From Heterodontus francisci (Eukaryota), in contig NW_027140453.1 of the NCBI RefSeq assembly GCF_036365525.1, forward strand, positions 1,178,001 through 1,242,000: a DNA stretch of 64,000 bases, read 5' to 3'. A model generated the notes under the pieces. It saw nothing but the letters and a program-made list of their open reading frames with translations, was not told the DNA's origin and ran no database searches. Position 1 is the stretch's first letter. Each line of letters starts with the position of its first letter. Position numbers and translations under genes: made by a program. Positions 631 to 64,000 of this stretch are shown here, in pieces.

Positions 631-1391
631 CGATACGACAAGCGCAGAAATAGACAGCGGTGTGAGATGTAGCAGCGTTTCTCAGTGCCAAAGTAAACAG
701 TGTATCGCTGAATCTGACTGCCTGAAATGACTCGGACCTGTAATTGGTAACAGTCACTTCTGTAGCAGAATAGAACAGAGATTCCAGTGCCCTGTCTGGT
801 TGTTGTCTGTACCAGTACATTAAGGTCCAGCCAGTATTGGTCAGCGTGCATCTGAGTGTTGTCGACTCTCCTGCTGCAATCGATAGGATCGAGGGAAACT
901 GTTCCACATAAGAGGCGAGTATTCCTGTGGAATGGAACATCGATTAAATTATTATTTCAGCCAATAGCGGATTAGAGGAGGGACTGCATTGCAAGAAAGA
1001 AAGGGCTTACATTAACATAGCGCCGTTCAGGACCTCAGAAAGTGCTTTGCAACCAATGTAGTTACTCAATCAGTACTGCCTCTGCGACAGTGCAGCACGC
1101 CCTCAGTACAGCCTCTGCGACAGTGCAGCACTCCCTCAGTACTGCCGGTGCTACATTGCAGCACTCCCTCAGTACTGCCTCTGCGACAGTGCAGCACTCC
1201 CTCAGTCGAGACACCCGGGGCTTTCAGCCTTGATTTTGAGCTGAAGTGTTCTGGAGTGAGACTCTGACACAGGAGTGTTCCGGACAGAATCACCGCTAAC
1301 ATTACAATACATTATTCGACACAGTTTCTGACTTTGACTTACGTGGGAAGAATGCAGCCATCAAGATTAGACAGAGAACTTCATGGAACAT
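631..1391 (-). pseudogene. TRBV: V1: TRBV-like segment, family 1 (CACS type). ORF intact but RSS defective. Leader 1391-1343, V exon 924-631
   Basis: Leader MFHEVLCLILMAAFFP ends at C|GTAAGT; acceptor CCACAG|GA. V domain has C...WYRQ...YFCAC. Heptamer reads CTGTG where paralogs have CACAGTG; nonamer is GCATCAACC. Confidence 0.85.
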
Positions 1392-2722
1392 GATTTCTTC
1401 ATTCGATACCAACTCGATGTGTGAACGTGTGGAGTTTTCAACAACACACTTGCAGGCGGTTTCTATATTATATCCAATTAAATACCCAGCATCCGGTTGT
1501 CATTGTTATTGGCAGTCACTTACTGCGACACTCTGCTCCACCCCATTACATTGTATAGCAATGTTGTAGAATGATACAACACAGGAGGATAGGGGGAGAT
1601 TGAATAGAGGTGTTCACATTTCAGAAAGGGATTTGATAGAGTAGAATTCAGGGAAGCAACCCTCTATACCCAGAGAGTGTGTACATCCCTTATTGCCCCT
1701 GAGAAGGTGGTGGTGAACCATCTTCGGAATTACCTTCTGGGCCATATCAGAGGGCAGTTAGTCGTCAACCACATTGCTGTGGGTCTGCAGTCACATATAG
1801 GCCAGACCGGGTAAGAATGGCAGATTTCCTTCCCTGAAGGTCATCAATGAATACGTTAGGTTTTTACGACATTCCATGTTCAGAATTGCTCTTACTTTCC
1901 ATTACAGATTTTATTTATTTACTTAATTAAATTTAAATTCAATTTCTGCCCTGGTGAGAATTGAACTCAAGTCTGGAGATCATTAGTCAAGGCCTCTGGA
2001 TTACTAGTCCAGTAACATAACTGCTCTGCTCCCGTACCTCCTTGCTGAATGGAGGTTAAAGGGTTAAATTGTTCACTGGTCTGAACTGCGAGTTTCTTTG
2101 AAGAACACATCAAATGTGACTCGAGTCTAAGATGAAAGTGGGTAAAGAGTTTTCAGCAGCTTCTGAACTGGAGAGGGGTCTCACTTTGAACACTGTGAAA
2201 CAGCGCTCAGATGGTTAATGGTTCTGCGCTGAGTTAGTTTCTGTGCATGAGGGGGTTGTTCGCCTCTGTGTAGTGACGTTTAGAGGGAGATTAACCAGAC
2301 TGGTATCAGGGATGAGGGACTTCAGTTACTGTGGAGAGACTGGAGAAGCTGGGGGTTTCTGCCCTTAGAGCAGAGAAGGTTAATTAGATGTGATACAGAT
2401 ATTGAAGATCATAGAGGATTTTGATAGATAATTGATGATAAACCACATCTTCTACTGGTCAAGATATAGAAAATCTATGAAAAGATGGTCATTCATTACA
2501 TTACTGCAGTCTGTTTAATTAGTTCAAACAAACTGTAATTACCTAAAGATAGTTAGATAGCTGGAGAGACAGAGAGATAGATAACCAGGTAGAGAGATAG
2601 ATAGATAGAGAGACAGAGAGATAAACAATCAGGTGGACAGATAGATATGAACAATAAGCTTCAATCTACTGCTGCCCCCTGCCAGTTGAAGATGAGCACT
2701 GAACTCCCGTTCATCCGCTGCA

Positions 2723-2761
2723 GGTTTTTGCAGCTGCTGATCCGCTTTCTCAAACACTGTG
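2723..2761 (-). promoter_or_regulatory. 23-RSS of V2
   Basis: CACAGTG, 23-bp spacer, GCAAAAACC. Confidence 0.95.
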
Positions 2762-3529
2762 CGATACTACAAGCGCAGAAATAGACAGCGGTGTGAGATG
2801 GAGCGGCGTCTCTCAGTGCCAAAGTAAACAGTGTATCGCTGGCTCTGTCTGCCTTAAATGACTCGGACGTGTAATTGGTGACAGACCCTGTTCCAACAGA
2901 ATAGAACAGAGCTTCCAGTGCCCTGTCTGGTTGTTGTCTGTACCAGTACATTGCAGGATAGCCAGTATTCTTCAGCATGCATCTGAGTGTGGTCGACTCT
3001 CCTGCGGAAATCGATAGGATCGAGGGCGACTGTTCCACATAGGAGGAGAGTATTCCTGTGGGACGGAACATCGATTAGATTATTATTTCAGTCAATAATG
3101 GATTGGAGCAGGGGCTGCATTACAAGAAAGAGAGGGCTTACATTAATATATCGCCGTTCAGGACCTCAGGGCATCAGAAACGGCTTTGCAACCAATGTAG
3201 TTACTCCCTCATTACTGCCTCTGCGAAAGTGCGGCACTCCCTCAGTACTGCCTCTGCAACAGTGCAGCACTCCCTCAGTACTGCCTCTGCGACGTGCAGC
3301 ACACCCTCAGTACTGCCTCTGTGACAGTCCAGCACTCCCACAGCCCTGACACCTGGGGTATTACTTTTGACTTTGAGCTCAAGTGTTCTGGAGTGAGACT
3401 CTGACACAGCAGTGTGATGGAACAGGATCACCACTGACATTACAATACATTATTCGACACAGTTTCGGACTTTGACTTACGTGGGAAGAGTGCAGCCATC
3501 AAGATTAGACTGAGAACTTCATGCAACAT
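2762..3529 (-). CDS. TRBV: V2: TRBV-like segment, family 1, apparently functional. Leader 3529-3481, V exon 3055-2762
   Basis: Leader MLHEVLSLILMAALFP, GT-AG phase-1 intron, YVEQSP...RCMLKNTGYPAMYWYRQ...YFCACSI, followed by an intact RSS. Confidence 0.93.
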
Positions 3530-4903: not shown

Positions 4904-4942
4904 GGTTTTTGCAGCTGCTGATCCGCTTTCTCAGACACTGTG
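4904..4942 (-). promoter_or_regulatory. 23-RSS of V3
   Basis: CACAGTG, 23-bp spacer, GCAAAAACC. Confidence 0.95.
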
Positions 4943-5777
4943 TGATACTACAAGTGCAGAAATAGACAGCGGTGTGAGATGGCGCGGCGTCTCTCAGTGC
5001 CAAAGTAAACAGTGTATTGCTGGCTCTGTCTGCCTTAAATGACTCGGACGTGTAATTGGTGACAGACCCTGTTCCAGCAGAATAGAACAGAGCTTCCAGT
5101 GCCCTGTCTGGTTGTTGTCTGTACCAGTACATTGTAAGATAGGCAGTATTCTTCAGCGTGCATCTGAGTGTTGTCGACTCTCCTGCGGAAAGCGATAGGA
5201 TAGAGGGTGTCTGTTCCACATAGGAGGAGAGTATTCCTGTGGGACGGAACATCGATTAGATTATTATTTCAGTCAATAATGGATTGGAGCAGGGGCTGCA
5301 TTACAAGAAAGAGAGGGCTTACATTAATATATCGCCGTTCAGGACCTCAGGGCATCAGAAACGGCCTTGCAACCAATGTAGTTACTCCCTCAGTACTGCC
5401 TCTGCGACAGTGCGGCACTCCCTCAGTACTGCCTCTGCAACAGTGCAGCACTCCCTCAGTACTGCCTCTGTGACAGTGCTGCACTCCCTCAGTGCTGCCT
5501 CTGCGACAGTGCAGCACTCCCTCAGTACTGCCTCTGCGACAGTGCAGCACACCCGCAGTACTGCCTCTGCGATAGTCCAGCACTCCCTCAGCCCTGACAC
5601 CTGGGGTGTTAGTTTTGACTTTGAGCTCAAGTGTTCTGGAGTGAGACTCTGACACAGCAGTGTTATGGAACAGAATCACCGCTGACTTTACAATACATTA
5701 TTCGACACAGTTTCTGACTTTGACTTACGTGGGAAGAATGCAGCCATCAAGATTAGACTGAGAACTTCATGCAACAT
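4943..5777 (-). CDS. TRBV: V3: TRBV-like segment, family 1, apparently functional. Leader 5777-5729, V exon 5236-4943
   Basis: Intact leader, splice sites and V ORF ending YFCTCSI. Confidence 0.93.
5385..5590. repeat. 33-bp intronic minisatellite in family-1 leader introns (also ~1065-1205 and ~3205-3345; ~1 copy at ~47850-47890)
   Basis: Unit CTCCCTCAGTACTGCCTCTGCGACAGTGCAGCA; copy number differs among paralogs. Confidence 0.9.
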
Positions 5778-8714: not shown

Positions 8715-8753
8715 GCTTTTTGTTGAACTGCTCCATCTCTCTGAGTCACTGTG
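8715..8753 (-). promoter_or_regulatory. 23-RSS of V4
   Basis: CACAGTG, 23-bp spacer, ACAAAAAGC. Confidence 0.92.
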
Positions 8754-9230
8754 AAGACTCCAGGCACAGAAATACACTGCCGAGTGATTCTCCCGCAGGC
8801 TGGAGGACTCGAGGTGGAACTCGGAGTTACTCGGTCTCTCGGCGGTGAAACCCTCCACCGTCCCCTCTGAGTTCACGCTTTGTACACTTCGGGAGTAAAA
8901 CATCAGCTGCGGCGTCTTCCCCGGGTATTGTCTGTACCAAAACATGTCAGGGTTACTTGTGCCCTGCACGGTGCATTTCAGCTTCACCTGCTCACCAGAA
9001 AATTTGGAGACAGCGGCGGGAGTCTGGTGGATAGTCTGTGAGTTCACATCTAGAAAAGAGACAGGGAGAGGAGGAGATCAATAAATAGCGACATTCAGTC
9101 CAGTGGGGAGAAAGAGGAGAGAGAGAGAAAATCAAAGAAAAATAAAATGAAAGAAATGTTAAGGAGAATTATTGTTTCAATAAAATGCCTTACGGTGAAA
9201 CAGGGTGATCAGAGTCAGTAACAGATACAT
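8754..9230 (-). CDS. TRBV: V4: TRBV-like segment, family 2 (SQTIHQ...CAWS type), apparently functional. Leader 9230-9194, V exon 9049-8754
   Basis: Leader MYLLLTLITLFH; NSQTIHQTP...CTVQGTSNPDMFWYRQ...YFCAWSL. Confidence 0.93.
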
Positions 9231-10430: not shown

Positions 10431-11066
10431 TTTATTTGTAAACCAGAAACGCAATGAGCACCAATATAGTGACAGAGCACCCAGAACCTAAACCATCCAG
10501 CATCTGCGGTTCCTTGTGTTCAGTTCACCAGACTGTAACCGGGATGTATTTCTATAATTATCAGGAGAGGTTCATAGAGAAATTTCAAAGTCCCTGTTGA
10601 AACATCATCAATAATCTGATCCATTTCACGGTCCGACACCGCCCTCTGCTGTCCCTTTGGAGAAAGACAACACTGTCAGTGAATAAAACACAACAGTGTC
10701 TGTCTGCCTACCAGCTATCTATCGACCTATCTACCTACCTATCTGATCTTCACTTCACACATTAAACCCTTTCATAATCTTTCTAAGAACTCTGAATTTT
10801 CACCCTTCAGTCTTCTCCTCTCTGGAGCAAAGATGTTCAAACTATCTTTGTTCTGATATCATTCCTGGAAAGTCCATTTCACACTTCCCCTGTGCTTCTG
10901 TATCTAACCTCTCACCTTCTGTTTAAATCCGCCCTGTCTTCTTGTGAAAAACACTTTTCCAATGCCAAAAACACCAAACAGGACGCAGCACCGCCTGGTT
11001 TTATCTGAAACAGGTGTTTCCTGCTGCCTTTGGGGTTTTTGTTGAACTGCTCCATCTCTCACTGTG

Positions 11067-11530
11067 AAGACTCCAGGCACAGAAATACACAGCCGAGTGA
11101 TTCTCCCGCAGGCTGGAGGACTCCAGTTTGAACTCGTACTTATTCAGTTTCTCTGCGGTAAAACCGTCCACCGTCCCCTCTGGATCCACATAGTTAGCAG
11201 TACTGGAGTAAAACATCAACAGCGGCTCCTTCCCCGGGTATTGTCTGTACCAGTACATGGAGATGCTACCAGTACATGGAGATGCTACTTCACAGTGCAC
11301 ATCAGTCCCACTCCTTTCGCGGGAAATCTGGAGACAGTGGCGGGAATCTGGTTGATAGTCTGTGAGTTCACATCTGGGAGAGAGATGGAGAGAGGAGGAG
11401 ATCAGTAAACAGGGAATTTCTGGGAATGAAAGGGAGACAGGGAGAGGAGAGGAAAGTTATTAACGATAATCTTTGCATTTCATGCTCACTTACAATGAAA
11501 CAAGATTATCAGACCCAGTAACTGATACAT
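11067..11530 (-). pseudogene. TRBV: V5: family-2 TRBV pseudogene. Leader 11530-11494, V exon 11373-11067
   Basis: 19-bp tandem duplication at 11250-11287 with net +11 nt gives a TAG after CTVK; RSS 11034-11066 has only a 17-bp spacer. Confidence 0.92.
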
Positions 11531-11783: not shown

Positions 11784-12581
11784 ATCTCAGTTTACCTTCC
11801 GCTCTCTTGCTCTCTCTCTGTCTGTCTCGCTCTCTCCTCATGTGTCTGGGGTTCTGTCTCCCACTCTCTCCTTCTCTCTGACTCTCCCTCTCTCTCACTC
11901 TTACTGTCTCATTAGTTCTTTCTCTGTCTCTGTCTCTCTCTAGCTCTGCCTCCCTATCTGTCTCAGGCTCTTTATCTCAGTCTCTCTTTCTCTCCTTCTC
12001 TCTCAGTCCCTTTCTCTCTCACTCTCATTATGTCTCTCTTGCTGCCTCGCTGTCTTTGTCCCTATCTCTGTCTCCCTCTCTGTCTCAGTCTCTTTAATTC
12101 TATCTGTCGTTTTTCCTCTCTCTCACTAGATCTCTCTGTCACACACACACACACTCTTACTCTCTCTAACAAAATGGTGTCCTTGTCCTGTTCATGTGTA
12201 TCAAGCTGGATCTGCATGATCTCCTGCTCTTTCAGTGTTCTCACTAAATCCTTCTCAAAGCCATTGTCAGTTCCATGGTCCTGGATCCCCCTCTGCTGAT
12301 CCTGTGGAGAAGGTAAACACTGTGTCAGTGCATAAAAACCCAGATTATTGTCATTGATTCCTGGTAATTACATTCTGAGATCTCGTGACACCTTTATTAA
12401 TCGCAGTACCTGTAAATCTAGTGTGTCACTACAATCATCGCTCAACACTTTTTATTGTAATACTTTCACTCTGCATAAGGGAACAGGAGGTCGAGGCACC
12501 GAACGGTTTTACCCCCCCACAGGTGTTTCCTGCTGCCTTTGGGGTTTTTGTTGAACTGCTCCACCTTTCTGAGTTACTGTG

Positions 12582-13042
12582 AAGACTCAAGGCACAGAAA
12601 TACACGGCCGAGTGATTCTCCCGCAGGCCGGAGGAGTCCAGTTTGAACTCGGAGTCAGTCGGTCTCTCGGCGGTGAAACCATCCAGTGTCCCCTCTGAGT
12701 TCACCCTCTGTACAGTTAGGGAGTAAATCATCAGCTGCGGCTCCGTCCCCGGGTATTGTCTGTACCAGTACATGTAAGGGTTACTGGTGCCATCCACGGT
12801 GCATTTCAGCTTCATCTGCTCCCCAGGAGATTTGGAGACAACGGCGGGAGTTGGTGGATAGTCTGTGAGTTCACATCTGGGAAAGAGACAGGGAGAGGAG
12901 GAGATCAGTAAACAGGGAATTTCAGTAAAGTGGGAGAGAGAAAGAAGTAAAAACAAAACCTAAAGAAATGTTAAGTAGAATTATTGTTTCAATAAAATTC
13001 CTTACGGTGAAACAGGGTGATCAGAGTCTGTAACAGATACAT
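12582..13042 (-). pseudogene. TRBV: V6: family-2 TRBV with a 1-bp frameshift in FR1. Leader 13042-13006, V exon 12876-12582
   Basis: GAGTTGGTGG here versus GAGTCTGGTGG in paralogs at ~12851; RSS 12543-12581 is CACAGTA-23-ACAAAAACC. A sequencing error cannot be excluded. Confidence 0.85.
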
Positions 13043-14413
13043 CTTTTACTTTAAGCTGCCCTCTGAATCAGCAAAGGGGAGAGAGCAGGAGTGATGAGTG
13101 TTGTCAATAACCAACCCACACTTTACAAATCATTGGGAGGAACAGGGAGAGCATTAGGAAGTGAGGCAGAGATGGTGACGTTCATTTCCCACATCAACAA
13201 ATGAGAATCGAGTTGTCAATGTCCCAATTTCTCTCTCAGTCTCTCTCTCTTTCTTTCTCTCTCTCTCTAAGGAGGTGATTGTCCTTCTCCTGGTCATGTA
13301 TATCAACCTGGAGGACTGTATGATCTCCCACTGTTTGAGTTATCCTATGAACTCCTTCTCAAAGCCATTGTGCATCACATGGTCCTAGAGCGTCCTCAGC
13401 TGTCCCTGTGGTGAAAATATACACAGTGTCAGTCTATAACAGCCCCACTCCTTTTATTGTTATTCTTTCCTGACAGTTACTATCCTGAGATCACGGGATA
13501 TTCTTATTCAATGAGCTGGAAAATGAATAGACACGGATACATAGCAGTGCATGTGTGTGCGTGTATTTTTCACTCGCTCTGTCTTTAGATCACTGACCCC
13601 CTCTGTTTTACTGCTCTCTGTCTTTCTGTCCCTGTCTCAGTCTTTGTGAGTGTGTGTGTATGTGTGTGTCTGTTTCCCAATCTGTTTCAGTCTCTTCCTC
13701 TGTCTTTTTTTTGTTTTCTCTCTGGTTCTTTCTTGGCCCCCCTCTCTGTCCTCCTCCCTCTCCTCTCTCTCCTCCTCTCAGTCTCAATCGCTCTGTCTCC
13801 GTCTCTCTGTCTCAGTCCCTTTGTCTCTGTCAGTTTTCCTCTCAATCTTGTTCTCACCCTCTCTCACACACTCTGTCTCCCTCTCTTTGTCTCTCTCGCT
13901 GTGTGTGTGTGTGTGTGTGTGTGTGCGTATCCCTCTTTAAGGTGATGAATGTCCTTCTCCTGTCACTGTGTATGAAGCTCGAGGGCTGCATGACCTCTGC
14001 CTCTTTCTGTTTTCCGATTAAATGTTTTCTCGTCCATTGTGTATTAATGGTCCTGGAGCGCCCTCTGTTAACCCTATAGAGGAAGAAAACTCAGTGTCAG
14101 TGCAGAAGAACTCAAGTCGTTTTATTGTTAATCTTTCCTGATAGTTACAACCTCAGGTCTGGTGTTATCCTTGTTAATCATTCAGAGAGAGATCGAAAGT
14201 TTTACCGCACAGATGGAGTCCGTTCGTTGTCTCTTCGTCAGTGCCTGTACATCTATTATCTCACTTTTATTCTCACTTGTCCTCTTATCATCACAAAAAC
14301 AATCGCCCTGCACAAAAACCAAGCGGCAGCACCGAGCACCTTTATCCTCCACAGGTGTTTCCTGCTGCCTTTGGGGTTTTTGTTGAACTTCTCCATCTCT
14401 CTGAGTCACTGTG

Positions 14414-14887
14414 AAGACTCCAGGCACAGAAATACACGGCCGAGTGATTCTCCCGCAGGCTGGAGGACTCCAGGTTGAACTCCGAGTTACTTGGTCTCTC
14501 GGCGGTAAAACCATCCACCTCTTCTGGAGATACGAGATTGGCACCCGTGGAGTAAAACATAAACTGCGGCTCCTTCCCCGGGTATTGTCAGTACCAAAAC
14601 ATGGCAGGGTTACTGCTGCCCTGCACGGTGCATTTCAGCTTCACCTGCTCCCCAGAATATTTGGAGACAGCAGAGGGAGTCTGGTGGATAATCTGTGAGT
14701 TCACATCTGGGAAAGAGACAGGGAGAGGAGGAGATCAGTAAACAGTAACATTCAGTCCAGAGGGGAGAAAGAGGAGAGAGAGAGAAAATCAAAGAAAAAT
14801 AAAACGAAAGAAATGTTAAGTATAATTGTTGTTTCAATAAAATGCCTTACGGTGAAACAGGGTGATCAGAGTCAGTAACAGATACAT
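14414..14887 (-). pseudogene. TRBV: V7: family-2 TRBV with in-frame stop (WY*Q). Leader 14887-14851, V exon 14706-14414
   Basis: AGA>TGA at 14588-14590; RSS 14375-14413 is consensus CACAGTG-23-ACAAAAACC. Confidence 0.9.
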
Positions 14888-17295: not shown

Positions 17296-17334
17296 GGTTT
17301 TTGTTGAACTGCTCCATCTCTCTGAGTCACTGTG
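17296..17334 (-). promoter_or_regulatory. 23-RSS of V8
   Basis: CACAGTG, 23-bp spacer, ACAAAAACC. Confidence 0.95.
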
Positions 17335-17787
17335 AAGACTCCAGGCACAGAAATACACGGCCGAGTGATTCTCCCGCAGGCTGGAGGACTCAAGGTTGAA
17401 CTGGGAGTCAGTTGGTCTCTCGGCGGTGAAACCGCCCACCGTCCCCTCTGGATCTACATAGTTAGCAGTACTGGAGTAAAACATCAACAGCGGCTCCTTC
17501 CCCGGATATTGTCTGTACCAGTACATTCTAGCAGTACTGGTGCCCTCCAATGTGCACCTCAGTTCCACTGCCTCTCCACGCAATCTGGAGACTGCGGCGG
17601 GAGTCTGGTGGATAGTCTGTGAGTTCACATCTGGGAGAGAGATGGAGAGAAGAGCAGATCAGTAAACAGGAAACTTCTGGGAATGAAAGGGAGACAGGGA
17701 GAAGAGAGGAACGTTATTAAAGATAGTTTTTGTATTTCACACTCACTTACAATGAAACAGGATTATCAGACCCAGTAACAGATACAT
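17335..17787 (-). CDS. TRBV: V8: family-2 TRBV, apparently functional. Leader 17787-17751, V exon 17630-17335
   Basis: Leader MYLLLGLIILFH; intact V ORF to YFCAWSL. Confidence 0.93.
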
Positions 17788-19006: not shown

Positions 19007-19009
19007 TGG

Positions 19010-45812: not shown

Positions 45813-45853
<41 letters not shown>

Positions 45854-47664: not shown

Positions 47665-48333
47665 ATGTTGCATGAAGTTCTCAGTCTAATCTTGATGCCT
47701 GCCCTGTTCCCACGTAAGTCAATGTCAGAAACTGTGTAGAATGATGTATTGTAATGTCAGCGGTGATTCTGTCCGGAACACTCCTGTGTCTGAGTCTCAC
47801 TCCAGAACACTTGAGCTCAAAGTCAAGGCTGACAACCCAGATGTCAGGACTGAGGGAGTGCTGCACTGTCGCAGAGGCAGCACTGAGGGAGTAACTACAT
47901 TGGTTGCAAAGCCCTTTCTGATGCCCTGAGGTCCTGAACGGCGCTATATTAATGTAAGCCCTCCCATTCTTGTAATGCAGCCCCTGCTCCAATCCATTAT
48001 TGACTGAAATAATAATTTAATCGATGTTCCATTCCACAGGAATACTCGCCTCATATGTGGAACAGACACCCTCGATCCTATCGATTGCTGCAGGAGAGTC
48101 GACAACACTCAGATGCACGCTGACCAATACTGCATATTACTATATGTACTGGTGCAGACAACAACCAGACAGGGCACTGGAAGTTCTGTTCTATTCTGCT
48201 GGAACAGGGTCTGTCACTAATTACACGTCCGAGTCATTTAAGGCAGTCAGAGCCAGCGATACACTGTTTACTTTGGCACTGAGAGACGCCGCTCCATCTC
48301 ACACCGCTGTCTATTTCTGCGCTTGTAGTATCG
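47665..48333 (+). CDS. TRBV: V14: family-1 TRBV in inverted orientation, ORF intact (WCRQ for WYRQ). Leader 47665-47713, V exon 48040-48333
   Basis: Leader MLHEVLSLILMPALFP, GT-AG intron, V ORF to YFCACSI. Confidence 0.92.
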
Positions 48334-48372
48334 CACAGTGCTTGAGAAAGCGGATCCGCAGCTGCAAAAACC
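48334..48372 (+). promoter_or_regulatory. 23-RSS of V14
   Basis: CACAGTG, 23-bp spacer, GCAAAAACC. Confidence 0.95.
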
Positions 48373-48392
48373 TGTAGTGGATGAACGGGAGT

Positions 48393-48847
48393 TCAGTGCT
48401 CATCATCCACCGGCAGGGGGCAGCAGTAGATTGGAACTCAGTGCTCATCATTCACCAGCAGGGGGCAGCAGTAGATTGAATCTCAGTGCTCATCTTCCAC
48501 CGGCAGGTGGCGGTAGGACATTGAATTTCAGTGCTCATCTTCCACCGGGAGGGGGCAGCAGTAGATTGAATCTCAGTGCTCATCTTCCACCGGGAGGGGG
48601 CAGCAGTAGATTGAGTCTCAGTGCTCATCTTCCACCGGCAGGGGGCAGCAGTAGATTGAGTCTCATTGCTCATCTTCCACCGGCAGGGGGCAGCAGTAGA
48701 TTGAGTCTCAGTGCTCATCTTCCACCGGCAGGGGGCAGCAGTAGATTGAGTCTCATTGCTCATCTTCCACCAGCAGGGGGCAGCAGTAGATTGAATCTCA
48801 CTGCTCATCATCCACCGGCAAGGGGCGGTAGTAGACTGACTGCTCAT
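48393..48847 (+). repeat. 10 x 45-bp tandem repeat, each unit with a CTCF-consensus core
   Basis: Units start at 48393, 48438 ... 48798; core CC(A/G)GCAGGGGGCAGCA. Confidence 0.9.
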
Positions 48848-51036: not shown

Positions 51037-51652
51037 ATGTCTGTGTCTCAGCTCTGGGTTGTGTTGTTGGTGTTAATGGGTAAGGAGGTGTCTGAACTGT
51101 GAGGTTACAATGATGTACATGTGCCTCTGCTTCTCAGTCTCTGTCTGTCTTTGTCTCTCTCCTTCTCCCTCCATATTTCTTTCTCTGTCTCTCATTCTCT
51201 CTCTCTCTCTCTGCCTTTATCTCTGACTCTAACTGGTCCCCACCGCTCTCTCTCTGTCTGCCCACTTCTACCTCTTCTTGTTGATAACGATATAGAGATT
51301 GTCCCTGGGTTAATCTCTCTCTTTCTCTCTCTCTCTCCCTCTCTGTTTTGCAGATGTGGGGGCCGTGTTGATCCAACAGACTCCCTCTTCCTTATCCCAT
51401 TCCCCAGGTTCTCCAGTCAGGATCGAGTGTATTTACACTGAAGCAACAGCTAGCTCCGTTTTCTACTGGTACCGATGGCAACTGGACCGTGAGCCCGAGA
51501 ACCTTTTCTATTCCTACCCCGCCAGAACGGTCACCCCCTCCGGAGAGGTGGACGGTTTCACCGCCAGGAGACCCGACAACACCCATTTTTACCTGGAGTC
51601 CTTGAGCCTGTGGGTGAATCAATCAGCCGTGTATTACTGTGCCTGGAGTTTG
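51037..51652 (+). CDS. TRBV: V15: family-5 TRBV, apparently functional. Leader 51037-51079, V exon 51354-51652, RSS 51653-51691
   Basis: Leader MSVSQLWVVLLVLM; VLIQQTP...ECIYTEATASSVFYWYRW...YYCAWSL; CACAGTG-23-GCAAAAACT. Confidence 0.92.
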
Positions 51653-53476
51653 CACAGTGACTCAGAAAGGCACCGGAGTTCAGCAAAAACTCTAAACATT
51701 GACAGAGCTCACTTGTGGGAGATAGACCTGTCTATCTGGGGTGTCATTCTATCACTCTGACTATCTGTCAGTTTCTATGTCTACTGTTGAATGAACTGGC
51801 TCTTTGACAGAGTTGTCTAACTAGTTCCCATTCACTGACTAGTTCTTCATTGCACTAATAAATCTCCCCTACATCTACTTCTCCAATTGACATCTGGAAG
51901 TTACGATTGGATGGTCTTCCACCGTCCTTTCAGTCAATGCCCTCCACATGATAACAATTCACTGAGGAGAAAGATTCCACTCATCTCCCACTCTGGTTCC
52001 TTTCCCAATTACCTTCAATTCTTGGTCCCTGGTTTATCGACACTCCTGACTGTAGATACGACCCTCTGGATACAGTTTCTCCATCAAGACACTTCTGACC
52101 ACGTCTTTCAAATCTCCCCTACCCTCATTACTCCAATGGACACAAGTCCATACAAATAGGAAATGGTTGATCTTGGAACCTTTAATCATGTCTCTGATGA
52201 TTCATACAGTGCAAAGGCGAGACACCTCTCCAGATCCGTCTCTGACTGGAACACCTGCCTCCAGACGGCGGCTTCAGCATCTGTTCAAAACTGTTAACAC
52301 ACTTGTCTCTCAGTCTTTCGGTATCTTTTGAAGAATTTTCACATTGACTGCAGTTCAGTGTGGTGAAGAACTTAACCCTTTAACTCCCGTTTAGCGCAAG
52401 GGGGGGAAATGAAACTGTCTTGACCCTGAAACAAGGCAGCAGGTTGACGGCTCTTATTGGATCATAGAATCATGAGGGACACATCCAGGGTATTCAGTCC
52501 ATCGATACTGGCCTCGCTGTTCGAAAGAGCGACCTCCTCCCATCTCTCTTCATCTTACCCTATCAACAGATTCTTCAATTCCTTTCTCACTCATGTATTT
52601 ATTCAGCTCCCCCCTAAACTGCATCGTCTCTATTCGACCTCAACCCATTCCATTGGTCGCTAATTCCACATTCTCACCGCTCCCTGGATTAAAGAACCTC
52701 CTCCTGAATTCCCAATTGGATTTATTAAGGACTACCTTACATTTATGATCCCTGGTTTTCATCTTCCCTGTCCAATTACTGCCACTCCCTGTTCTTTCTG
52801 ATTAACCCTGCACTTGATCTTGCAGCTTGTCTGTCTCCTTCCCACCATTACAACAGTTACTGCATTTCAAAATACATTTGACTGGTTGAGGCTGGAGTGA
52901 AGCAGAGAGCTGTCGGGCCGAATGGAGCCGATCTGTGCATTAGCTTCCATCGACTTCTGTGCCACAAGCGCCAACACGAGTCGAGTAGAAGATTATAACT
53001 AATGACTGAAACAGGTTCAGGGTCTGACACTGAAACGCCTGATGAATCGGTGCTTGCAGTTACACCTGGAGCCACTAGGTGCCAGTGTTACTCCACTGTC
53101 GCCGCTGCCGAGAACATGCTCAGACAGAGTGAGCTTTACCCACAGCAGCTCCACAGGTCAACTTGGCTGCTTCTGAAATGTTTCACTTCTCAACTATTTC
53201 ACACAAAATATTCCGGCAATGGAAGATGAGGGAGATGAGTTTTTAATCTGATCGTTTACGGGTCATTAAGTATCAATTATGTCAGTGCAACCTTGAAATA
53301 TTTGCACCCAGATGCCAGTTTGTAGATTTCCAGGTTCTATTTTACAATTACATTGTCCCAGGTGTTTGTAGGAAACTAGGAGAGTGGCTGAATGTCCATC
53401 CTGACTTTCGCACAACTCCCACATCTATCGTGCCAAGTGTAAAGTAACATTTTCCCCCCATGCTCCCTGTTTCCAG

Positions 53477-54402
53477 GTTGAATAACGGGAGATCTGGTGC
53501 TCACTTCATGTGATCAAGTGAGAGACAGTTTTCAGAACAGAAGGCTTCACACTGACATGTTGTGATATCCTCACCCTGCCGGTGGAAGGGCTGTATTAAT
53601 CAGGTCTGTTCATTGAGGAGGTGAAACTCAGTATGTTGAGGTTTTAAGAGCGGATTTGCTTTTGCAGAACATTGCAAAACATTAAATTAACACAGAAGCT
53701 GGAGAGAGTTCACCTTCTTAGGCAGTTCCCCCTGGATTGAGGATGACTTGCTTCCACTCCGGTTCAATGGGTTCTGAGATGGCTGATGAGTCCAGTGTAT
53801 GATCTGCAGACTCTGTCACATGATGGGCAGGTGGTGCTTTGAGGATCAGGCAGGTGAGTAGTTTGCAGGTTTGTGCGCTCCCTCCGATGCCTCGGCCTTG
53901 CCTCTGCATGTTCCTTAAGTTCCTCGAGGTGTCCGATGCCTTCCCGTATGTCCTTTCTCCAACTGGGATGTTCAGGAGCCATGTTCTCCCAGGAGTCAAT
54001 GCGGATGTTTCATCTCTCCAGGGATGCTGTGAGGACATCTCTAAAACGTTTCCGCTGTCCTCCTGGGAGTCTCCTGACACGGCTAAGTTCTGAGTAGAAC
54101 TGCTTCTTTGGGGAGTCTGGTGGCAGGAATGTGAACGACATGTCCCAGCCAGTGGAGCTGGTTTTGGGTGACTCGAACCCTGACACTAGACAGATTGGTT
54201 TGGGAGAGGACGATGCTGTTGGACTACCTGTTTTGCCACTGGATTTGGAGGTTAATGCGGAGGCACCTCTGGTGTTACTTCTCCTGTGCTTTGAGGTGTC
54301 GACTGTAGGTTCTCCAAGGTAAGATCAATGTGGAGGTGCATTTATTTACAGTGACTGACAGGACAAAGCAGTTCAGAGCTATCCACTGTCTAGACAAAGA
54401 AC
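53477..54402 (+). pseudogene. Decayed family-3 V relic split by an RTE fragment
   Basis: Intron similar to V10 intron; CTCAGTATG...GGTTTTAAGAGCGG matches V10 PQYEDGFKSG; relic RSS CAAAGCA-23-ACAAAGAAC at 54364-54402. Confidence 0.75.
53714..54318 (-). mobile_element. RTE-like LINE 3' fragment
   Basis: C-terminal TCPSCDRVCRSYTGLISHLRTH; duplicated at ~58322-58925. Confidence 0.8.
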
Positions 54403-55599: not shown

Positions 55600-56227
55600 A
55601 TGTCTTTGTCTCAGCTCTGGGTTGTGTTGTTGGTGTTAACGGGTAAGGAGGTGTCTGAACTGTGAGGTTCCAATGATGTACATGTGTCTCTGCTTCTCAG
55701 TCTCTGTCTCTCTTTGTCTCTCTCCTTCTCCCTTTATATTTCTTTCTCTGTCTCTCATTCTCTCTCTCTATCTCTGCCTTTATCTCTGTCTCTATTTCTA
55801 ACTGGTCCCCACCGCTCTCTCTCTCTCTCTGTCTGCCCACTTCTACCTCTTCTTGTTGATAACAATATAGACATTGTCCCTGGTTTTATCTCTCTCTTTC
55901 TCTCTCTCTCTCCCTCTCTGTTTTACAGATGTGGTGGCCGTGTTGATCCAACAGACTCCCACTTCCATATCTCATTCCCCAGGCACTCTAGTCAGGATCG
56001 AGTGTATTTACACTGAAGCAACAGCTAGCTCTGTTTTCTACTGGTACCAATGGCATCTGGACCGTGAGCCCGAGAACCTTTTCTATTCCTACCCCGCCGG
56101 AACGGTCACCCCCTCCGGTGAGGTGGACGGTTTCACCACCAGGAGACCCGACAACACCCATTTTTACCTGGAGTCCTCCAGCCTGTTGGCGAATCAATCA
56201 GCCGTGTATTACTGTGCATGGGGTCAG
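55600..56227 (+). CDS. TRBV: V16: family-5 TRBV, apparently functional. Leader 55600-55642, V exon 55929-56227, RSS 56228-56266
   Basis: Leader MSLSQLWVVLLVLT; V ORF to YYCAWGQ; CACAGTG-23-GCAAAAACT. Confidence 0.92.
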
Positions 56228-58084
56228 CACAGTGACTCCGAAAGGCGCCGGAGTTCAGCAAAAACTCTAAACATTGACAGAGCTCACTTGTGGGAGATAG
56301 ACCTGTCTATCTGGGATGTCATTCTATCACTCTGACTATCTGTCAGTTTCTATGTCTACTGTTGAATGAACTGGCTCTTTGACAGAGTTGTCTAACTAGT
56401 TCCCATTCACTGACTAGTTCTCCATTGCACTAATAAATCTCCCCTACATCTACTTCTCCAATTGACATCTGGAAGTTACTATTGGATGGTCTTCCACCGC
56501 CCTTTCAGTCAGTGCCCTCCACATGATAACAATTCACTGAGGAGAAAGATTCCACTCATCTCCCACTCTGGTTCCTTTCCCAATTACCTTCAATTCTTGG
56601 TTCCTGGTTTATCGACCCTCCTGACTGTCGATACCACCCTCTGGATACAGTTTCTCTATCAAGACACATCTGACCACGTCTTTCAAATCTCCGCTTACCC
56701 TCATTACTCTAATGGACACAAGTCCATACAAATAGGAAATGGTTGATCTTGGAACCTTTAATCATGTCTCTGATGATTCATACAGTGCAAAGGCGAGAAA
56801 CCTCTCCAGATCCGTCTCTGACTGGAACACCTGCCTCCAGACGGCGGCTTCAGCATCTGTTCAAAACTGTTAACACACTTGTCTCTCAGTCTTTCGGTAA
56901 CTTTTGAAGAATTTTCACATTGACTGCAGTTCAGTGTGGTGAAGAACTTAACCCTTTAACTCCCGTTTAGCACAAGGGGGGGAAATGAAACTGTCTTGAC
57001 CCTGAAACAAGGCAGCAGGTTGACGGCTCTTATTGGATCATAGAATCATGAGGGACACATCCAGGGTATTCAGTCCATCGATACTGGCCTCGCTGTTCGA
57101 AAGAGCGACCTCCTCCCATCTCTCTTCATCTTACCCTATCAACAGATTCTTCAATTACTTTCTCACTCATGTATTTATTCAGCTCCCCCCTAAACTGCAT
57201 CGTCTCTATTCGACCTCAACCCATTCCATTGGTCGCTAATTCCACATTCTCACCGCTCCCTGGATTAAAGAACCTCCTCCTGAATTCCCAATTGGATTTA
57301 TTAAGGACTACCTTACATTTATGATCCCTGGTTTTCATCTTCCCTGTCCAATTACTGCCACTCCCTGTTCTTTCTGATTAACCCTGCACGTGATCTTGCA
57401 GCTTGTCTGTCTCCTTTCCTGCATTACAACAGTTGCTGCATTTCAAAATACATTTGACTGGTTGAGGCTGGAGTGAAGCAGAGAGCTGTCGGGCCGAATG
57501 GCGCCGATCTGTGCATTAGCTTCCATCTCGTTCTGTGCCACAAGAGCCAACACGAGTCAAGTAGGAGAATATAACTAATGACTGAAACAGGTTCAGGGTC
57601 TGACACTGAAACGCCTGCAGAATCAGTGCTTGCAGTTACACCTGGAGCCACTAGGTGCCAGTGTTACTCCACTGCAGCCGCTGCCGAGAACATGCTCACA
57701 CAGAGTGAGCTTGACCCGCAACAGCTCCACATGTCAACTTGGCTGCTTCTGAAATGTTTCACTTCTCAACTATTTCACACAAAATATTCCGACAATGGAA
57801 AAAAGTCAATGATTTGATATAAGGTAGATTGAGCCTTTAATCTGATCGTTATGGGGGCATTAAGTGACATTAATATCTGTCCAACTTTGAAATATTTGCA
57901 CCCAGATGCCAGTTTGTAGATTTCCAGGTTCTATTTTACAATTACTTTCCCCCAGGTGTTTGTAGGAAACTAGGAGAGAGCCTGAATGTCCATCGTGACT
58001 TTAGCACAACTCCCACATCTATCGTGCCAAGTGCAAAGTAACATTTCCCACCCCCCCCCCCCCCCCCACGCTCCCTGTCTCCAG

Positions 58085-59009
58085 GTGGAATAACGGGAGA
58101 TCTGGTGCTCACTTCATGTGATTAAGTGAGAGACAGTTTTCAGAACAGAAGGCTTCACACTGACATGTTGAGATATCCACACTCCGCCGGTGGAGGGGCT
58201 GTATTAATCAGGTCTGTTTATTGAGGAGGTGAAACTCAGTATGTTGAGGTTTTAAGAGCATGTTTGCTTTTGCAGATCAGTGCAAAATAATAAATTAACA
58301 AGGAAGCTGGAGAGAGTTCACCTTCTTAGGCAATTCCCCGGGATTGAGAATGACTTGCTTCCATTCCGGTTCAATGGGTTCTGAGATGGCTGATGAGTTC
58401 AGTGTATGATCTGCAGACGCTGTCACATGAGGGGCAGGTGGTGCTTGTAGGATCAGGTAGGTGAGTAGTTTGCAGGTTTGTGCGCTCCCTCCGATGCCTC
58501 GGCCTTACCGCTGCATGTTCCTGAAGTTCCTCGTGGTGTCCGATGCCTTCCCGTTTGTCCTTCCTCCGTCTGGGATGGTCAGGAGCCTGGGTCTCCAAGG
58601 AATCGACGGGGATGTTTCATCTCTCCAGGGATGCTGTGAGGACACCTCTAAAGCCTTTCCGCTATCCTCCTGGGAGTCTCCTGCCACGACCAAGTTCTGA
58701 GTAGAACAGTTGCTTTGGGGAGTCTGGTGGCAGGAATGTGAATGACATGTCCCAGCCAGTGGAGCTGGTGTGGGGTGTTTCGCGCCCTGACACGAGGCAG
58801 GTTGGTTTGGGAGAGCACGATGCTGTTGGACTACCTGTCTTGCCACTGGATTTGGAGGATAATGCGGAGGCACCTCTGGTGTTACTTCTCCTGTGCTTTG
58901 AGGTGTCTACTGTCGGTTCTCCAAGGTAAGGTCAATGTGGAGGTGTATTTATGAGCAGTGACTGACGGGACAAAGCGGTTCAGAGTTATCCACTGTCGAG
59001 ACAAAGAAC
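58085..59009 (+). pseudogene. Decayed family-3 V relic, copy 2, split by RTE
   Basis: GAGGTGTATTTATGAGCAGTGACTGACGGGA then CAAAGCG-23-ACAAAGAAC (58971-59009), aligning to the V10 end and RSS. Confidence 0.78.
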
Positions 59010-60206
59010 CACACACAGACTGACCTCAAACTCACGTAATTTTCCCAAGAACTCAAAGAGCAGTGCCTCATCCACAGTTTTATCATCAAGAACCTGGGTT
59101 CCAAAATTGGAATTTGCACATTTTTGGTCTCCAACCTCCTTGGTTAAAACACACTGGGTGCACTGTGAACATTTCAGGACTCCTCATTCCTTGGTTAGAC
59201 TTCATTTGGAGAACTGTGCACTGTTCCATTCTCATTATACATTGGTTAGATCACAACTGGAGCACTGAGCACAGTTCTGGCGTCTATATACATTGGTTAG
59301 ACCACATTTAGATCACGGTATAATTATACATAACAGTAGAGATCGAACAGGCAGGGGTCCTTCTCTAGAAATGAGGGGTTCCCAGATAAGAAGTCTTTAA
59401 TATTATTAATAGGTTTGATAGGATAGTCGTAGAGAAGATATTTTCACTTGAGGCCCAAGACCAGAACTATAAGGTATAAAATAATCAGTACAAATCCAGA
59501 CGTGAATTCAGGACAAACTTCATTACCCAGAGATTGGTGAGAATGGGGAACGAACCACCATAGGCAGTGGTGGAGGCAAATAGTATTCAGTGGGATACTA
59601 GTAGACATACGAGGCAGAAAGGATTGACAGGAGATGCTGAGAAGATGAGATAAAGAGGGATGAAAGGATGTATCTGTGGAACATCAACACCTGTATAGAT
59701 CCGTTCACCTGATGCTGTGTTCTATATTGTCTGCAATTCTATATAGTCAACGTCAGTATCTGAAAGAGGGGAGAAAGTTGGAAAGCCGATCTGGAACTTC
59801 CCAAGGAGTTCTACAGCCAATGAAGTGCTTCTGTTGAATTACAGGCATGTTGGTCTTTATTGCAAGGGGGATGGGAGTACAAGAATAAGGAAGTCGTATT
59901 ACACTTGTATTGGGTCTTGGTGAGAACACACCTGGAGTACTAGGTGCACATATTTGGAGAGAGCTCCGAATGATCGGGCTGCAGATGTCAATGACACAGA
60001 ACTGCAGTTCCAGAAAGCGATTACCAGGAGTCTAACATTGGTCCCTCCCCGGAAATGAAAGAAAACTGGGTCCCGCCTATCCGAATGATAAAGTGATGGA
60101 GAAGGAAGCTGTGAATTTCAGTCTGTGCCCAGAACTTTGAGATACTCGACAATAAAAGTGCTCAGTCATTTCATATAAAACCACACGGATCCTTCACCCT
60201 CCAGAG

Positions 60207-60820
60207 ATGTCTTTATCTCAGCTCTGGGTTGTGTTGTTGGTGTTAACGGGTAAGGAGGTGTCTGAACTGTGAGGTTACAATGATATACATGTGTCTCTGC
60301 TTCTCAGTCTCTGTCTGTCTTTGTCTCTCTCCTTCTCCCTCTATAATTCTTTCTCTGTCTCTCATTCTCTCTCTATCTCTCTCTCTGCCTTTATCTCTGC
60401 CTCCAACTGGTCCCCACCTCTCTCTTTATCTCTCTGTCTGCCCGCCTCTACCTCTTCTTGTTGATATCTTTATTGACATTGTCCTTGGGTTTATCTCCCT
60501 CGTTCCCTCTCTGTTTTACAGAAGTGGGGGCCGTGTTGATCCAACAGACTCCTGCTTCCATATCCCATTCCCCAGGATCTCCAGTCAGGATCCAGTGTAT
60601 TTACACTGAAGCAACTGCTACGTCCTATTTCTACTGGTACCGGTGGCATCCGGACCGTGAGCCCGAGAATCTTTTCTATTCCTACCCCGCCGGAACGGTC
60701 AGCCCCTCCGGTGAGGTGGACGGTTTCACCGCTAGGATACCCGACAACACCCATTTTTATCTGGAGTCCTCCAGCCTGTTGGCGAATCAATCAGCAGTGT
60801 ATTACTGTGCCTGGAGTCAG
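60207..60820 (+). CDS. TRBV: V17: family-5 TRBV, apparently functional. Leader 60207-60249, V exon 60522-60820, RSS 60821-60859
   Basis: V ORF to YYCAWSQ; CACAGTG-23-GCAAAAACT. Confidence 0.92.
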
Positions 60821-62673
60821 CACAGTGACTCAGAAAGGCGCCGGAGTTCAGCAAAAACTCTAAACATTGACAGAACTCACTTATGGGAGATAGACCTGTC
60901 TATCTGGGGTGTCATTCTATCACTCTGACTATCTGTCAGTTTCTATGTCTGCTGTTGAATGAACTGGCTCTTTGACAGAGTTGTCTAACTAGTTCCCATT
61001 CACTGACTAGTTCTTCATTGCACTAATAAATCTCCCCTACATCTACTTCTCCAATTGACATCTGGAAGTTACTATTGGATCGTCTTCCACCGCCCTTTCA
61101 GTCAGTGCCCTCCACATGATAACAATTCACTGAGGAGAAAGATTCCACTCATCTCCCACTCTGGTTCCTTTCCCAATTACCTTCAATTCTTGGTCCCTGG
61201 TTTATCGACTCTCCTGACAGTAGATACAACCATCTGGATACAGTTTCTCTATCAAGACACTTCTGACCACATCTTTCAAATCTCCCCTTACCCTCATTAC
61301 TCTAATGGACACAAGTCCATACAAATAGGAAATGGTTGATCTTGGAACCTTTAATCATGTCTCTGATGATTCATACAGTGCAAAGGCGACACACCTCTCC
61401 AGATCCGTCTCTGACTGGAACACCTGCCTCCAGACGGCGGCTTCAGCATCTGTTCAAAACTGTTAACCCATTTGTCTCTCAGTCTCTCGGGGTCTTTTGA
61501 AGAATTTTCACAGTGACTGGAGTTCAGTGCGGTGAAGAACTTAACCCTTTAACTCCCGTTTAGCACAAGGGGGGAAATGAAACTGGCTTGGCCCTGAAAC
61601 AAGGCAGCAGGTTGACGGGTCTTATTGGATCATAGAATCATGCAGGATAGATCCAGGCCATTCAGCCCAACGATCCTGGCCTGGCTGTTCGAAAGAGCGA
61701 CCTCCTCCCATCTCTCTCTATCTTGCACCATCAGCAGATTCTTCTATTCCTTTCTCACTCATGTATTTAATCAGCTCCCCCCTTAACTGCATCGTCTCTA
61801 TTCGATCTCAACCCATTCCATTTGGTCGTCAATTCTACATTCTCAACGTTCCCTGGGTTAAAGAACCTCCTCCTGAATTCCGAATTGGATTTATTAAGGA
61901 CTACCTTACATTTATGATCCCTGGTTTTCACCCTCCCTGTCCAATTACTCCCACTCCCTTTTCTTTATGAATAACGCTGCACTTGATCTTGCAGCTTGTC
62001 TGCCTCCTTACCGACATGACAACAGTGCACTTCAATATGTATTTGACTGGCTGAGGCTTGAGTGAAGCAGGGAGCTGTCAGGCCGAATGGCGCGGATCTG
62101 TGCACTAACTTCCATCTAGTTCTGTGCCACAAGCGCCAAAACGAGTCGAGTAGGAGAAGATAACTAATGACTGAAACAGGTTCAGGGTCTGACACTGAAA
62201 CGCCTGATGAATCGGTGCTTGCAGTTGCAGCTGGAGCCACTAGGTGCCAGTGTTACTCCACTGCAGCCGCTGCCGAGAACATGCTCAGACAGAGTGAGCT
62301 TTCCCCACAGCAGCTCCACAGGTCAACTTGGCTGCTTCTGAAATTTTTCACTTCTCACCTATTTCACACAATATATTCCGGCAATGCGAAAAAAAACCTC
62401 AATGATTTGATATCCCGTAGATGAGCCTTTAATATGATTGTTTAGGGGGCATTAAGTGACATTTATATCATTCCAAACTTGAAATATTTGCACCCAGATG
62501 CCAGTTTGTAGATTTCCAGGTTCTATTTTGCAATTACATTGGCCCAGGTGTTTGTAGGAAACTAGGAGAGAGCCTGAATTTCCATCGTGACTTTAGCACA
62601 ACTCCCACATCTATCGTGTCAAGTCTAAAGTAACATTCCCCCCGCCCCCCACTCCCGTGCTCCCTGTTTCCAG

Positions 62674-62855
62674 GTGGAATAACGGGAGATCTGGTGCTCA
62701 CTTCATGTGATCAAGTGAGAGACAGTTTTCAGAACAGAAGGCTTCACACTGACATGTTGTGATAGCCTCACTGCGCTGGTGGAGGGGCTGTATTAATCAG
62801 GTCTGTTCATTGAGGAGGTGAAACTCAGTTTGTTGAGGTTTTCAGAGCGGGTTTG
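62674..62855 (+). pseudogene. Decayed family-3 V relic, copy 3, 3'-truncated
   Basis: Same sequence as 53477 onward, ending at GAGCGGGTTTG where a SINE-like block begins. Confidence 0.7.
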
Positions 62856-64000
62856 GACGGATGATTTCCTTCCCGAAAAGACATGAGTGAGCCAGCTGGG
62901 TGTCAGGACACCTTAACTGAGACTAGTTTTCAATTGCAGATTTTCTGATGAAATAATTGCATTTATTCATTAATTGAATTTAAATTCCACCATCTGACCT
63001 GGTGGGATTCTAACGCATGTCCCCTGGAGATTCACCCCCGCCTCTGGTATACCAGCTCAGTGACATGACAACTACACCACCATCTGCCCCAGGCTAGTCT
63101 GGAACGTGGGGCCATCGGGCCGAATAGCCTGAATCTGTGCTGCAATTTCTATCTAATTCGATGTCACTAGCGTCACCAGCTGAAGCAATGGATAAAAAAT
63201 GGGAAGACGGAGCAATTTCAAAGCATGTCTTCATAATGCCTATTTTATCAATTGCACTTTGCAAATCTCAGGTGCCTGTAGTTACACATTACAGCCACGA
63301 GATGGGGATGGAGCTCCACCGCAGCCTGAGTCCCACTTGCTTCTGGAGAGACTGAGCGAGCAATGCAGCAGTGACTTGACCCATCGACCTAATAGTCAAT
63401 TCCACTAACTCTGAAACAGATTAAAATCATAACCATTCCACACAAAATAGACAACTGGATTTCCCCAAGTCTGCTCGTTCATAGTGACTGGTTTGACCAA
63501 CACTTGTGATATACTAAAACAGATAATCTGAAGGAAGTAAAGAGGGGAAGCAAAGTCAGAAAACAGTGAAAGAAAAATGGAGAAGGAGGAATTTTATATA
63601 AAGAAGCACATATTCAGGGATGTGCACATCACTGACAAGGTCAGAATTCATTACCTATGCCGAATTGCCCTGAACTGAATGACTTGCTAGCCCATCTCAG
63701 AGGCAGTTAACAGTGAACTACATTGCTATCAGGTGATTCATTTTGGCAGAAGGGAGACAGAGAGGAAATACAGACTTAATGACACAGGCCTGAAGAGTGT
63801 TCAAGGACAGAGGGACCTGGGGGTTAATGTGCATAGATCTTTGAAGGTGGCAGGACATATGGAGAGAGAGGTTCACAAAGCTTATGGGATCTCGAGATTT
63901 ATAAATAGAGGTGTAGAGTTCAAAAGCAGAGAGATTGAGCGAAACATTTATAAGGCTCTTGTTCAGCCCCAACTTGAGTATTGAGTCCAGTTCTGGTCAC
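62855..64000 (-). repeat. Inverted, diverged copy of ~19700-20830
   Basis: Matching ORF-track translations (SPAEAMxKKWEDGAISKHVF) on opposite strands and collinear flanking repeats. Confidence 0.9.

Follow-up and report, generated by a model that had tools for sequence, protein, structure and literature searches.

Back-to-back V arrays in a shark TCR-beta locus, each probably joining an outer D-J-C cluster of its own

Head-to-head TRB loci have been published for pike and salmonids (PMC10464911), and inverted TRBV clusters are described in the newt Pleurodeles waltl (PMC12698447) and in tuatara (PMC11754216, PMC10772921). An earlier note on the DNA studied here implied that mammalian TRBV30/Trbv31 was the sole precedent for V genes of opposite orientation, which these systems contradict. 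Shark TCR genes have been described as plain translocons (PMC6795676). Our literature search, in which subscription papers were sparsely covered, turned up no shark TRB locus mapped at the genomic level. Older work reportedly recognized several TCR-beta clusters in the horn shark.

The window analysed here is a stretch of 64,000 nt from Heterodontus francisci (assembly GCF_036365525.1, contig NW_027140453.1, positions 1,178,001-1,242,000, forward strand). It carries 13 minus-strand TCR-beta V segments, which form the left arm, and 4 plus-strand V segments with 3 plus-strand relics, which form the right arm (Table 1). The positions of the V segments and of their recombination signals (RSS) uphold this count and the divergent layout, both as first proposed. 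Six of the 13 left-arm segments are intact (V2, V3, V4, V8, V11, V13) and seven are defective (V1, V5, V6, V7, V9, V10, V12), compared with 4/4 intact in the right arm. An RSS with a 23-base spacer lies 3′ of the V in 15 of the 17 segments, being broken in V1 and V5, and the signals of both arms face outward. Intact segments possess a split leader and splice sites, and all six V exons tested matched the Pfam V-set; for V12, no good leader candidate was found.

Table 1. Annotated features of the window, in order of position.
Feature	Coordinates	Strand	Heptamer/coding end	Description
V1, family 1	632..1391	-	631	frame open; heptamer and nonamer broken
V2, family 1	2723..3529	-	2761	leader, exon and 23-spacer RSS all intact
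V3, family 1	4904..5777	-	4942	intact
V4, family 2 (CAWS type)	8715..9230	-	8753	intact
V5, family 2	11034..11530	-	11066	first cysteine lost by frameshift; RSS spacer of just 17
V6, family 2	12543..13042	-	12581	frameshift close to exon start
V7, family 2	14375..14887	-	14413	stop in frame
V8, family 2	17296..17787	-	17334	intact; RSS matches consensus; TCR beta chains head its single-domain PDB matches
V9, family 2	18883..19010	-	18921	just 3′ end and RSS
Shared non-coding block, left copy	19700..20842			8.2% substitutions relative to 62843-64000
V10, family 3	22468..23388	-	22506	exon interrupted by insertion of ~136 bases, which recurs at 7610-7706
V11, family 4	28042..28896	-	28080	intact; 96.7% identity to H. 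francisci protein P0167
V12, family 5	29972..30294	-	30010	15-base deletion; YYC motif altered
V13, family 6 (VH-looking)	34656..35320	-	34694	leader, exon and RSS intact
Decayed V13-related V	38853..39165	-		one stop; lacks first cysteine; heptamer + 15 + nonamer
Stretch with RNA-run contig chain flanking N gap	44976..47046			coding and RNA family searches negative
V14-bearing inverted family-1 unit	47361..48538	+	48334	leader 47665; RSS 48334-48372; V14 frame open, extra cysteine downstream of conserved tryptophan
45-base minisatellite	48393..48839	+		~10 copies, CTCF-like motif in each
V15, family 5	51037..51691	+	51653	intact
Relic 1, family 3 (V10 family)	53297..53660	+		intron and 5′ half of exon
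V16, family 5	55600..56266	+	56228	intact
Relic 2, family 3 (V10 family)	57862..59031	+		5′ half, then insertion, then 3′ end whose RSS is broken
V17, family 5	60207..60859	+	60821	intact; contig matches in presumed RNA runs
Relic 3, family 3 (V10 family)	62483..62855	+		ends where shared block begins
Shared block, right inverted copy	62843..64000			continues past window end

The named proteins closest to the V segments of the window are those of Heterodontus. The nurse shark V-beta-3 primer (PMC5931798) matches V1, V2 and V14 with one mismatch and V3 with two, and its shuffled control gave 0/100 matches; the nurse shark V-beta-2 forward primer found no match when 3 mismatches were allowed. 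Relatives of family 1 occur in named shark TCR-beta chains at 67-75% identity, and those of family 2 are PDB TCR-beta chains and shark chains with C-beta-like constant regions. Families 3-5 are taken as TRBV from linkage and likeness. V11-like genes of H. francisci lie on three contigs, which may be haplotype copies. The top PDB matches of V13 are VH domains; a catshark relative shows 67% identity, and in an eel gene model V13-related segments alternate with V11-like ones. We found no named chain related to V13, and a word-index search with V13 gave no match.

The centre had been described as V-free, which does not hold for its left part, where a decayed minus-strand V resides; the V-free part is ~39.2-47.4 kb. 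A tblastn search with V13 retrieved this segment (E 3e-9), and a tree of 16 of the 18 V-like exons (V9 and V10, whose exons are broken, were left out) places it, on a long branch, with V13 (97/96). Pfam gave weak Ig matches to it (E 0.03-0.06). Neither between the arms nor elsewhere in the window did we find D, J or C in a scan with J motifs, 12-spacer signals, a shark C-beta profile in six frames and, at 35.1-47.4 kb, Pfam, a scan that short D segments could escape; the best C-beta profile hit had an E of 0.71. Trypsinogen was likewise not found by Pfam in 150 of the 157 frames of at least 45 aa at 35.1-47.4 kb, nor any RNA family by Rfam in the whole window, and a search of the centre returned no protease exon. 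The layout is that of a head-to-head locus, with two V arrays diverging from a centre in which no D-J-C was detected. It departs from the TRBV30/Trbv31 type in that no D-J-C was found to separate the inverted segments from the main V array, but either arm could still be the 3′-inverted cluster of an outer D-J-C. The evidence supports both the TRBV identity and a genuine, diverged, back-to-back layout.

Homology between the arms was examined next to the claim that they are mirror images. The family-1 unit at 47361-48538 does repeat the V1-V3 unit in inverted orientation (86-94%), 62843-64000 inverts 19700-20842 at 90.6%, and the order family 5 (V12), family 3 (V10), shared block is found in both arms. 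Copies of the V12 downstream flank do lie inverted behind V15-V17; however, about the first 200 of its ~350 bases have 71-73% matches in the V1-V3 spacers too; the flank is therefore partly a dispersed repeat and was rejected in part as a unique marker. While the opposite orientations stand, the term mirror image is overstated: of the right arm's 16640 bases, 6192 (~37%) lie in inverted matches, and of the left arm's 35100, 7384 do. V14 adjoins the centre, and its paralogues V1-V3 occupy the extreme left. Inside the window, the right arm lacks counterparts of V4-V9, V11 and V13. The copies are visibly diverged, as the earlier note had it, and their non-coding divergence falls into two strata, young blocks at 5-9% and old blocks at 25-34%. 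These strata and the non-mirrored position of V14 led us to reject a single mirror duplication.

Contigs of presumed RNA runs (X5, X6 and X11, which have no RNA on record and whose contigs are evidence of presence only) indicate that both arms are transcribed. The window and the run set are ~99% alike (7 differences in 796 bases). In X6, letters of the V2/V3 type predominate, and letters of the V17 type are present at 51386. An X5 contig matches 60524-60652 in V17 with one difference and bears 37 extra 5′ letters, as expected from a spliced leader.

CTCF-like motifs, scored as matches to a consensus and amounting to about five independent sites, follow the arms. With at most one mismatch, 3/3 motifs left of the N gap are on the minus strand and 10/10 to its right are on the plus strand; with at most two, 6/35 run against this arm-wise orientation. 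Behind V14 lies the ten-copy array, with 76 bases between the V14 heptamer and the first of its motifs; the inverted direction of the family-1 motif simply reflects the inversion of its unit. In the mouse, every V-region CTCF site of Tcrb points to its D-J-C (PMC5859386, PMC10772921), and motif and V orientation are uncorrelated at Igk (PMC5859386).

The window is best read as the central part of a shark TCR-beta locus, with each back-to-back V array probably joining its own outer D-J-C. The earlier note had offered bank-wide inversion or one D-J-C per arm; the pair was rightly chosen, and the evidence leans to the latter. Besides the outward CTCF-like motifs, strongly diverged C-beta paralogues in sharks make this reading the likelier one. 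In bamboo sharks, constant regions of Hemiscyllium and Chiloscyllium punctatum are 92.7% identical (153/165), and that of a Chiloscyllium plagiosum chain is only 50.6% identical (83/164) to its congener C. punctatum; the C. plagiosum C-beta is therefore a paralogue. Against this, such paralogues, which come from other shark genera, could sit in tandem at one end or could lie on other chromosomes. One of the chains is a gene model labelled 'kappa-like' by its source. As to the history of the arms, a tandem cassette of early origin (family 5 followed by families 4 and 3) would have come to be present in both orientations; the younger V14 unit and the shared block would stem from subsequent inverted copying or conversion between arms, and tandem copying would then have tripled the right-arm unit. 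Each V would be joined by RAG to a D-J in the direction it points, through deletion where cluster and arm share their orientation and otherwise through TRBV30-type inversion, and the outward motifs would anchor two separate loop domains.

A single D-J-C, to which the arm facing away joins by inversion from upstream in the fashion of mouse V-kappa, is possible but doubtful. In the distal inverted copy of human IGK, V genes directed away from J join by inversion. The same is described for mouse Igk, where roughly one in two V-kappa genes does so and which provides a model for this alternative, although it is a B-cell locus without D segments whose CTCF orientation is independent of V orientation (PMC5859386). 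Moreover, a flipped Trbv1 signal still recombines in the mouse (PMC10772921), and one D-J-C could therefore serve both arms. Intact, transcribed segments in both arms also fit, and the arms are complementary in the window, since intact family 5 is confined to the right and families 2, 4 and 6 to the left. The divergence of shark C-beta paralogues speaks against a single cluster, as does the fact that the CTCF-like motifs of one arm would face away from that one D-J-C, unlike those of mouse Tcrb. In its specific form, a functional V bank that includes all intact family-5 segments and inverts over a long range to a single D-J-C, with the minisatellite of ~10 CTCF motifs behind V14 as loop anchor where the orientation changes, this alternative appears unlikely.

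An assembly error, with the contig to the right of the 45383-45518 gap flipped and the true locus an ordinary tandem array, is quite improbable. Flipping would yield a plain same-strand array, and this is the sole gap between the last minus-strand V (39165) and the first plus-strand unit (47361); none of the contigs listed bridges it with at least 31 letters on both sides. However, in a read check of the centre from 44.1 kb rightward, overlapping X5 contigs reach similar depth at 44976-45382 (450, 327) and at 45519-47046 (449, 475, 338, 469), with X6 and X11, from the same sample, showing depths of 0 to 6 at the places listed left and right of the gap. A scaffolding flip is unlikely because one presumed RNA run thus covers both sides of the gap similarly. 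Read on the plus strand, the loose contig ends left and right are both TC-rich, DNA contig depth is similar left and right (X1 80-162), and the switch of orientation is not bounded by a near-identical inverted repeat.

No more credible is a right arm that is an orphan inverted duplicate, transcribed but never rearranged. The three relics, the extra cysteine of V14, the absence of V14-specific letters (48218) from all four runs examined and the lack of any observed V-D-J junction would agree with it. Yet V15-V17 retain open frames, leaders and splice sites as well as signals close to consensus, in contrast to the decayed V12, their left paralogue, and V17 is the best match of the H. francisci family-5 proteins (84-85%). 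Finally, two haplotypes of one array merged by the assembler can be practically dismissed: the arms do have families and one block in common, but their gene content differs and their non-coding divergence is far above the ~1% between window and runs, which excludes allelic copies.

Back-to-back arrays in a shark of the bullhead type would mean that double TRB loci are not a peculiarity of pike and salmonids, and would raise the question of how one beta chain per T cell is kept despite several loci. The locus offers a natural test of whether V and CTCF orientation decide the choice of D-J-C. As the type of arrangement is already known, the gain is in range and testability.

TRBV30 ends in CAWS, as do families 2 and 5 here. 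Mouse Trbv31, human TRBV30 and five tuatara V genes are oriented opposite to the other TRBV genes, as here, but these amniote genes lie behind C with D-J-C in between (PMC11754216, PMC10772921), whereas the shark arrays diverge without a detected D-J-C between them. The newt P. waltl has V clusters of opposite orientation with expressed members in both, six mapped C-J-D units with inverted clusters among them, V families sorted by orientation and trypsin genes between the arrays (PMC12698447). In the shark window, by contrast, families 1, 3 and 5 each have members in either orientation and the centre yielded no protease exon. The pike and salmonid loci have the same back-to-back geometry of V arrays; both of their D-J-C clusters are mapped and are nearly identical (PMC10464911), whereas none was found in the shark window, whose arms are 5-34% diverged and whose host is a cartilaginous fish. 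An origin other than one inverted duplication may also apply to the salmonid V arrays.

Thirteen minus-strand V segments (V1-V13, left arm) were found within 632-35320 and four plus-strand ones (V14-V17, right arm) within 47665-60859, as the earlier note had counted them. Every V signal in the window is directed away from the centre. The intact V segments of the left arm are V2, V3, V4, V8, V11 and V13. All four right-arm segments have a leader, an open frame and a signal, and V14 carries an extra cysteine. Three right-arm relics of the V10 family were likewise recovered, after V15, V16 and V17, within a tripled 4.6-kb unit. Arrays of 33-base repeats lie within the family-1 introns, about one copy being left in V14.

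Defective left-arm V segments and other features of the window
Feature	Position	Arm or strand	Remark
V1		left arm, -	defective: signal
V5, V6		left arm, -	defective: frameshifts
V7		left arm, -	defective: stop
V9		left arm, -	defective: 3' piece only
V10		left arm, -	defective: insertion
V12		left arm, -	defective: deletion, altered YYC, no good leader found
V13	34656-35320	-	short CDR2 bearing two extra cysteines
Decayed V	38853-39165	-	related to V13; 15-base signal spacer
LINE-like fragment	37874-38805		directly after decayed V
45-base minisatellite	48393-48839 (+); 428-573, 2672-2685, 4853-4866 (-)		one CTCF-like motif per unit
38-base minisatellites	32580-33457, 41012-41309, 42436-42661		related; flank V13 on both sides
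37-base array	42670-43160
N gap	45383-45518		only gap inside the switch

From its sequence we identify the window, which holds four N gaps, as a TRB V array, because every V segment with an intact signal has a 23-base spacer, family-1 V segments are present in named shark TCR-beta chains, and a published nurse shark V-beta-3 primer (PMC5931798) fits V1, V2 and V14 at one mismatch and V3 at two, whereas 100 shuffles gave no match. The closest proteins to the V exons are from Heterodontus francisci itself; V11 is 96.7% identical to one of them (P0167), and non-coding DNA caught in gene models of this species matches the window at 65-92% in translation. The family assignment of V13 appears less sure than the TRB identity of the rest. 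Against PDB entries it comes closest to VH domains, although a catshark relative stands at 67%. Relatives are found in gene models of catshark, paddlefish, eel and arapaima, alternating in the eel model with V11-like segments.

A D-J-C cluster probably lies beyond each arm, in which case every V would face its partner. A single D-J-C, with one arm pointing away and joining by inversion from upstream, seems rather unlikely. A flipped Trbv1 signal does still recombine in mouse (PMC10772921). However, two centres are favoured by three indirect lines, which place no D-J-C next to either arm: the strongly diverged C-beta paralogues of sharks; the CTCF-like motifs, which follow the arms, all V-region sites of mouse Tcrb being directed to D-J-C (PMC5859386, PMC10772921); and the TRB of pike and salmonids, which shares the geometry of the window (PMC10464911). 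The constant regions of Hemiscyllium ocellatum and Chiloscyllium punctatum are 92.7% identical, whereas identity between the C-beta of a Chiloscyllium plagiosum chain and that of its congener is 50.6%. Shark TCR-beta constant regions (proteins P0165, P0169, P0184, P0175 and P0171) form groups 34-51% alike, two of them within Chiloscyllium. Shark C-beta may exist in several isotypes that are under-described.

Scanned with a CTCF consensus, the window gave 13 consensus matches (about five independent) at no more than one mismatch, against 0.77 expected. All three to the left of the gap are on the minus strand and all ten to the right on the plus strand; when two mismatches are allowed, 6 of 35 run against arm orientation. 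The 45-base minisatellite lies behind family-1 V signals, in about ten copies after V14, three after V1 and one each after V2 and V3, and the first motif is 75-76 bases from the heptamer position in all four. These putative sites may be likened to the V-adjacent CTCF sites of mouse loci. The agreement of motif orientation with the arms is a lead.

Transcription of V segments is seen for both arms in the run set, in two presumed RNA runs. In X6, contigs placed on V14 bear V2/V3-type letters and contigs placed on V15 bear a V17-type letter at 51386. An X5 contig agrees with 60524-60652 save for one difference, and 37 further letters precede this stretch in the contig, at the place where splicing would attach the leader. 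Letters specific to V14 went largely unseen in the run set.

An assembly flip at the gap, giving a false switch of orientation, is very improbable. No contig among those listed bridges the gap, and the read test of the switch did not reach 39.2-44.1 kb. However, overlapping X5 contigs cover 44976-45382 and 45519-47046 at a depth of 327-475, where presumed RNA runs X6 and X11, which share its sample, gave 0 to 6 on both gap sides at the listed places. Moreover, both X5 contigs extend into the gap with TC-rich plus-strand letters, an argument weakened by the frequency of plus-strand TC tracts in the window, and DNA depth is similar left and right. The simplest reading, which is not proof, is one transcript spanning one microsatellite. 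Allelic haplotypes are excluded, inter-arm divergence being above the level at which the window differs from the runs that contain it, about 1% (7 of 796 bases over the eight listed pieces of DNA run X1).

The centre had been described as V-free, overlooking the decayed V; the V-free part is thereby cut to ~8 kb. It contains LINE-like fragments and minisatellites; J, C, trypsinogen and an RNA family were looked for there and none was found, nor was a D-J-C between the arms. The ~2 kb at 44976-47046 covered by X5, without cover in X6 or X11, has no Pfam or Rfam match and may be a non-coding RNA, or else a terminal exon, within the TRB locus.

A single mirror duplication, as the earlier note's mirror image implied, does not account for the arms. 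Inverted matches cover 6192 of 16640 right-arm bases, and V14 is innermost in the right arm whereas V1-V3 are outermost in the left one, so that the position of V14 is not mirrored. Inter-arm substitutions fall into two groups: 5-9% (non-coding V14 unit) and 8.2% (the shared non-coding block, 19700-20842 and 62843-64000), similar to the values for tandem units inside either arm (4-8.5%), and 25-26% (V12 flank) and 28-34% (V10 against the relics). In the tree V14 is nested among V1-V3, beside V1 (95/93). The family order reads as an old tandem cassette, because Heterodontus francisci gene models have a family-5 V followed by a V11-like V on the same strand, with the same spacer DNA. This cassette would have been placed in both orientations early, and the younger blocks may stem from later inverted copying or conversion between arms.

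No shark TRB map was found in passages of PMC12227049, PMC12529555 and PMC13433984, or in the literature searched, whose scope largely left out subscription papers; a review terms shark TCR loci translocons (PMC6795676). The back-to-back TRBV array looks real and functional. The arrangement is of a kind already known, since inverted or head-to-head TRBV arrays have been published for newt (three inverted TRBV clusters, expressed; PMC12698447), tuatara (five 3'-inverted TRBV; PMC11754216), pike and salmonids. In the last two, head-to-head loci with the V segments in the middle are the basic plan of TRB, and this is the geometry of the window.
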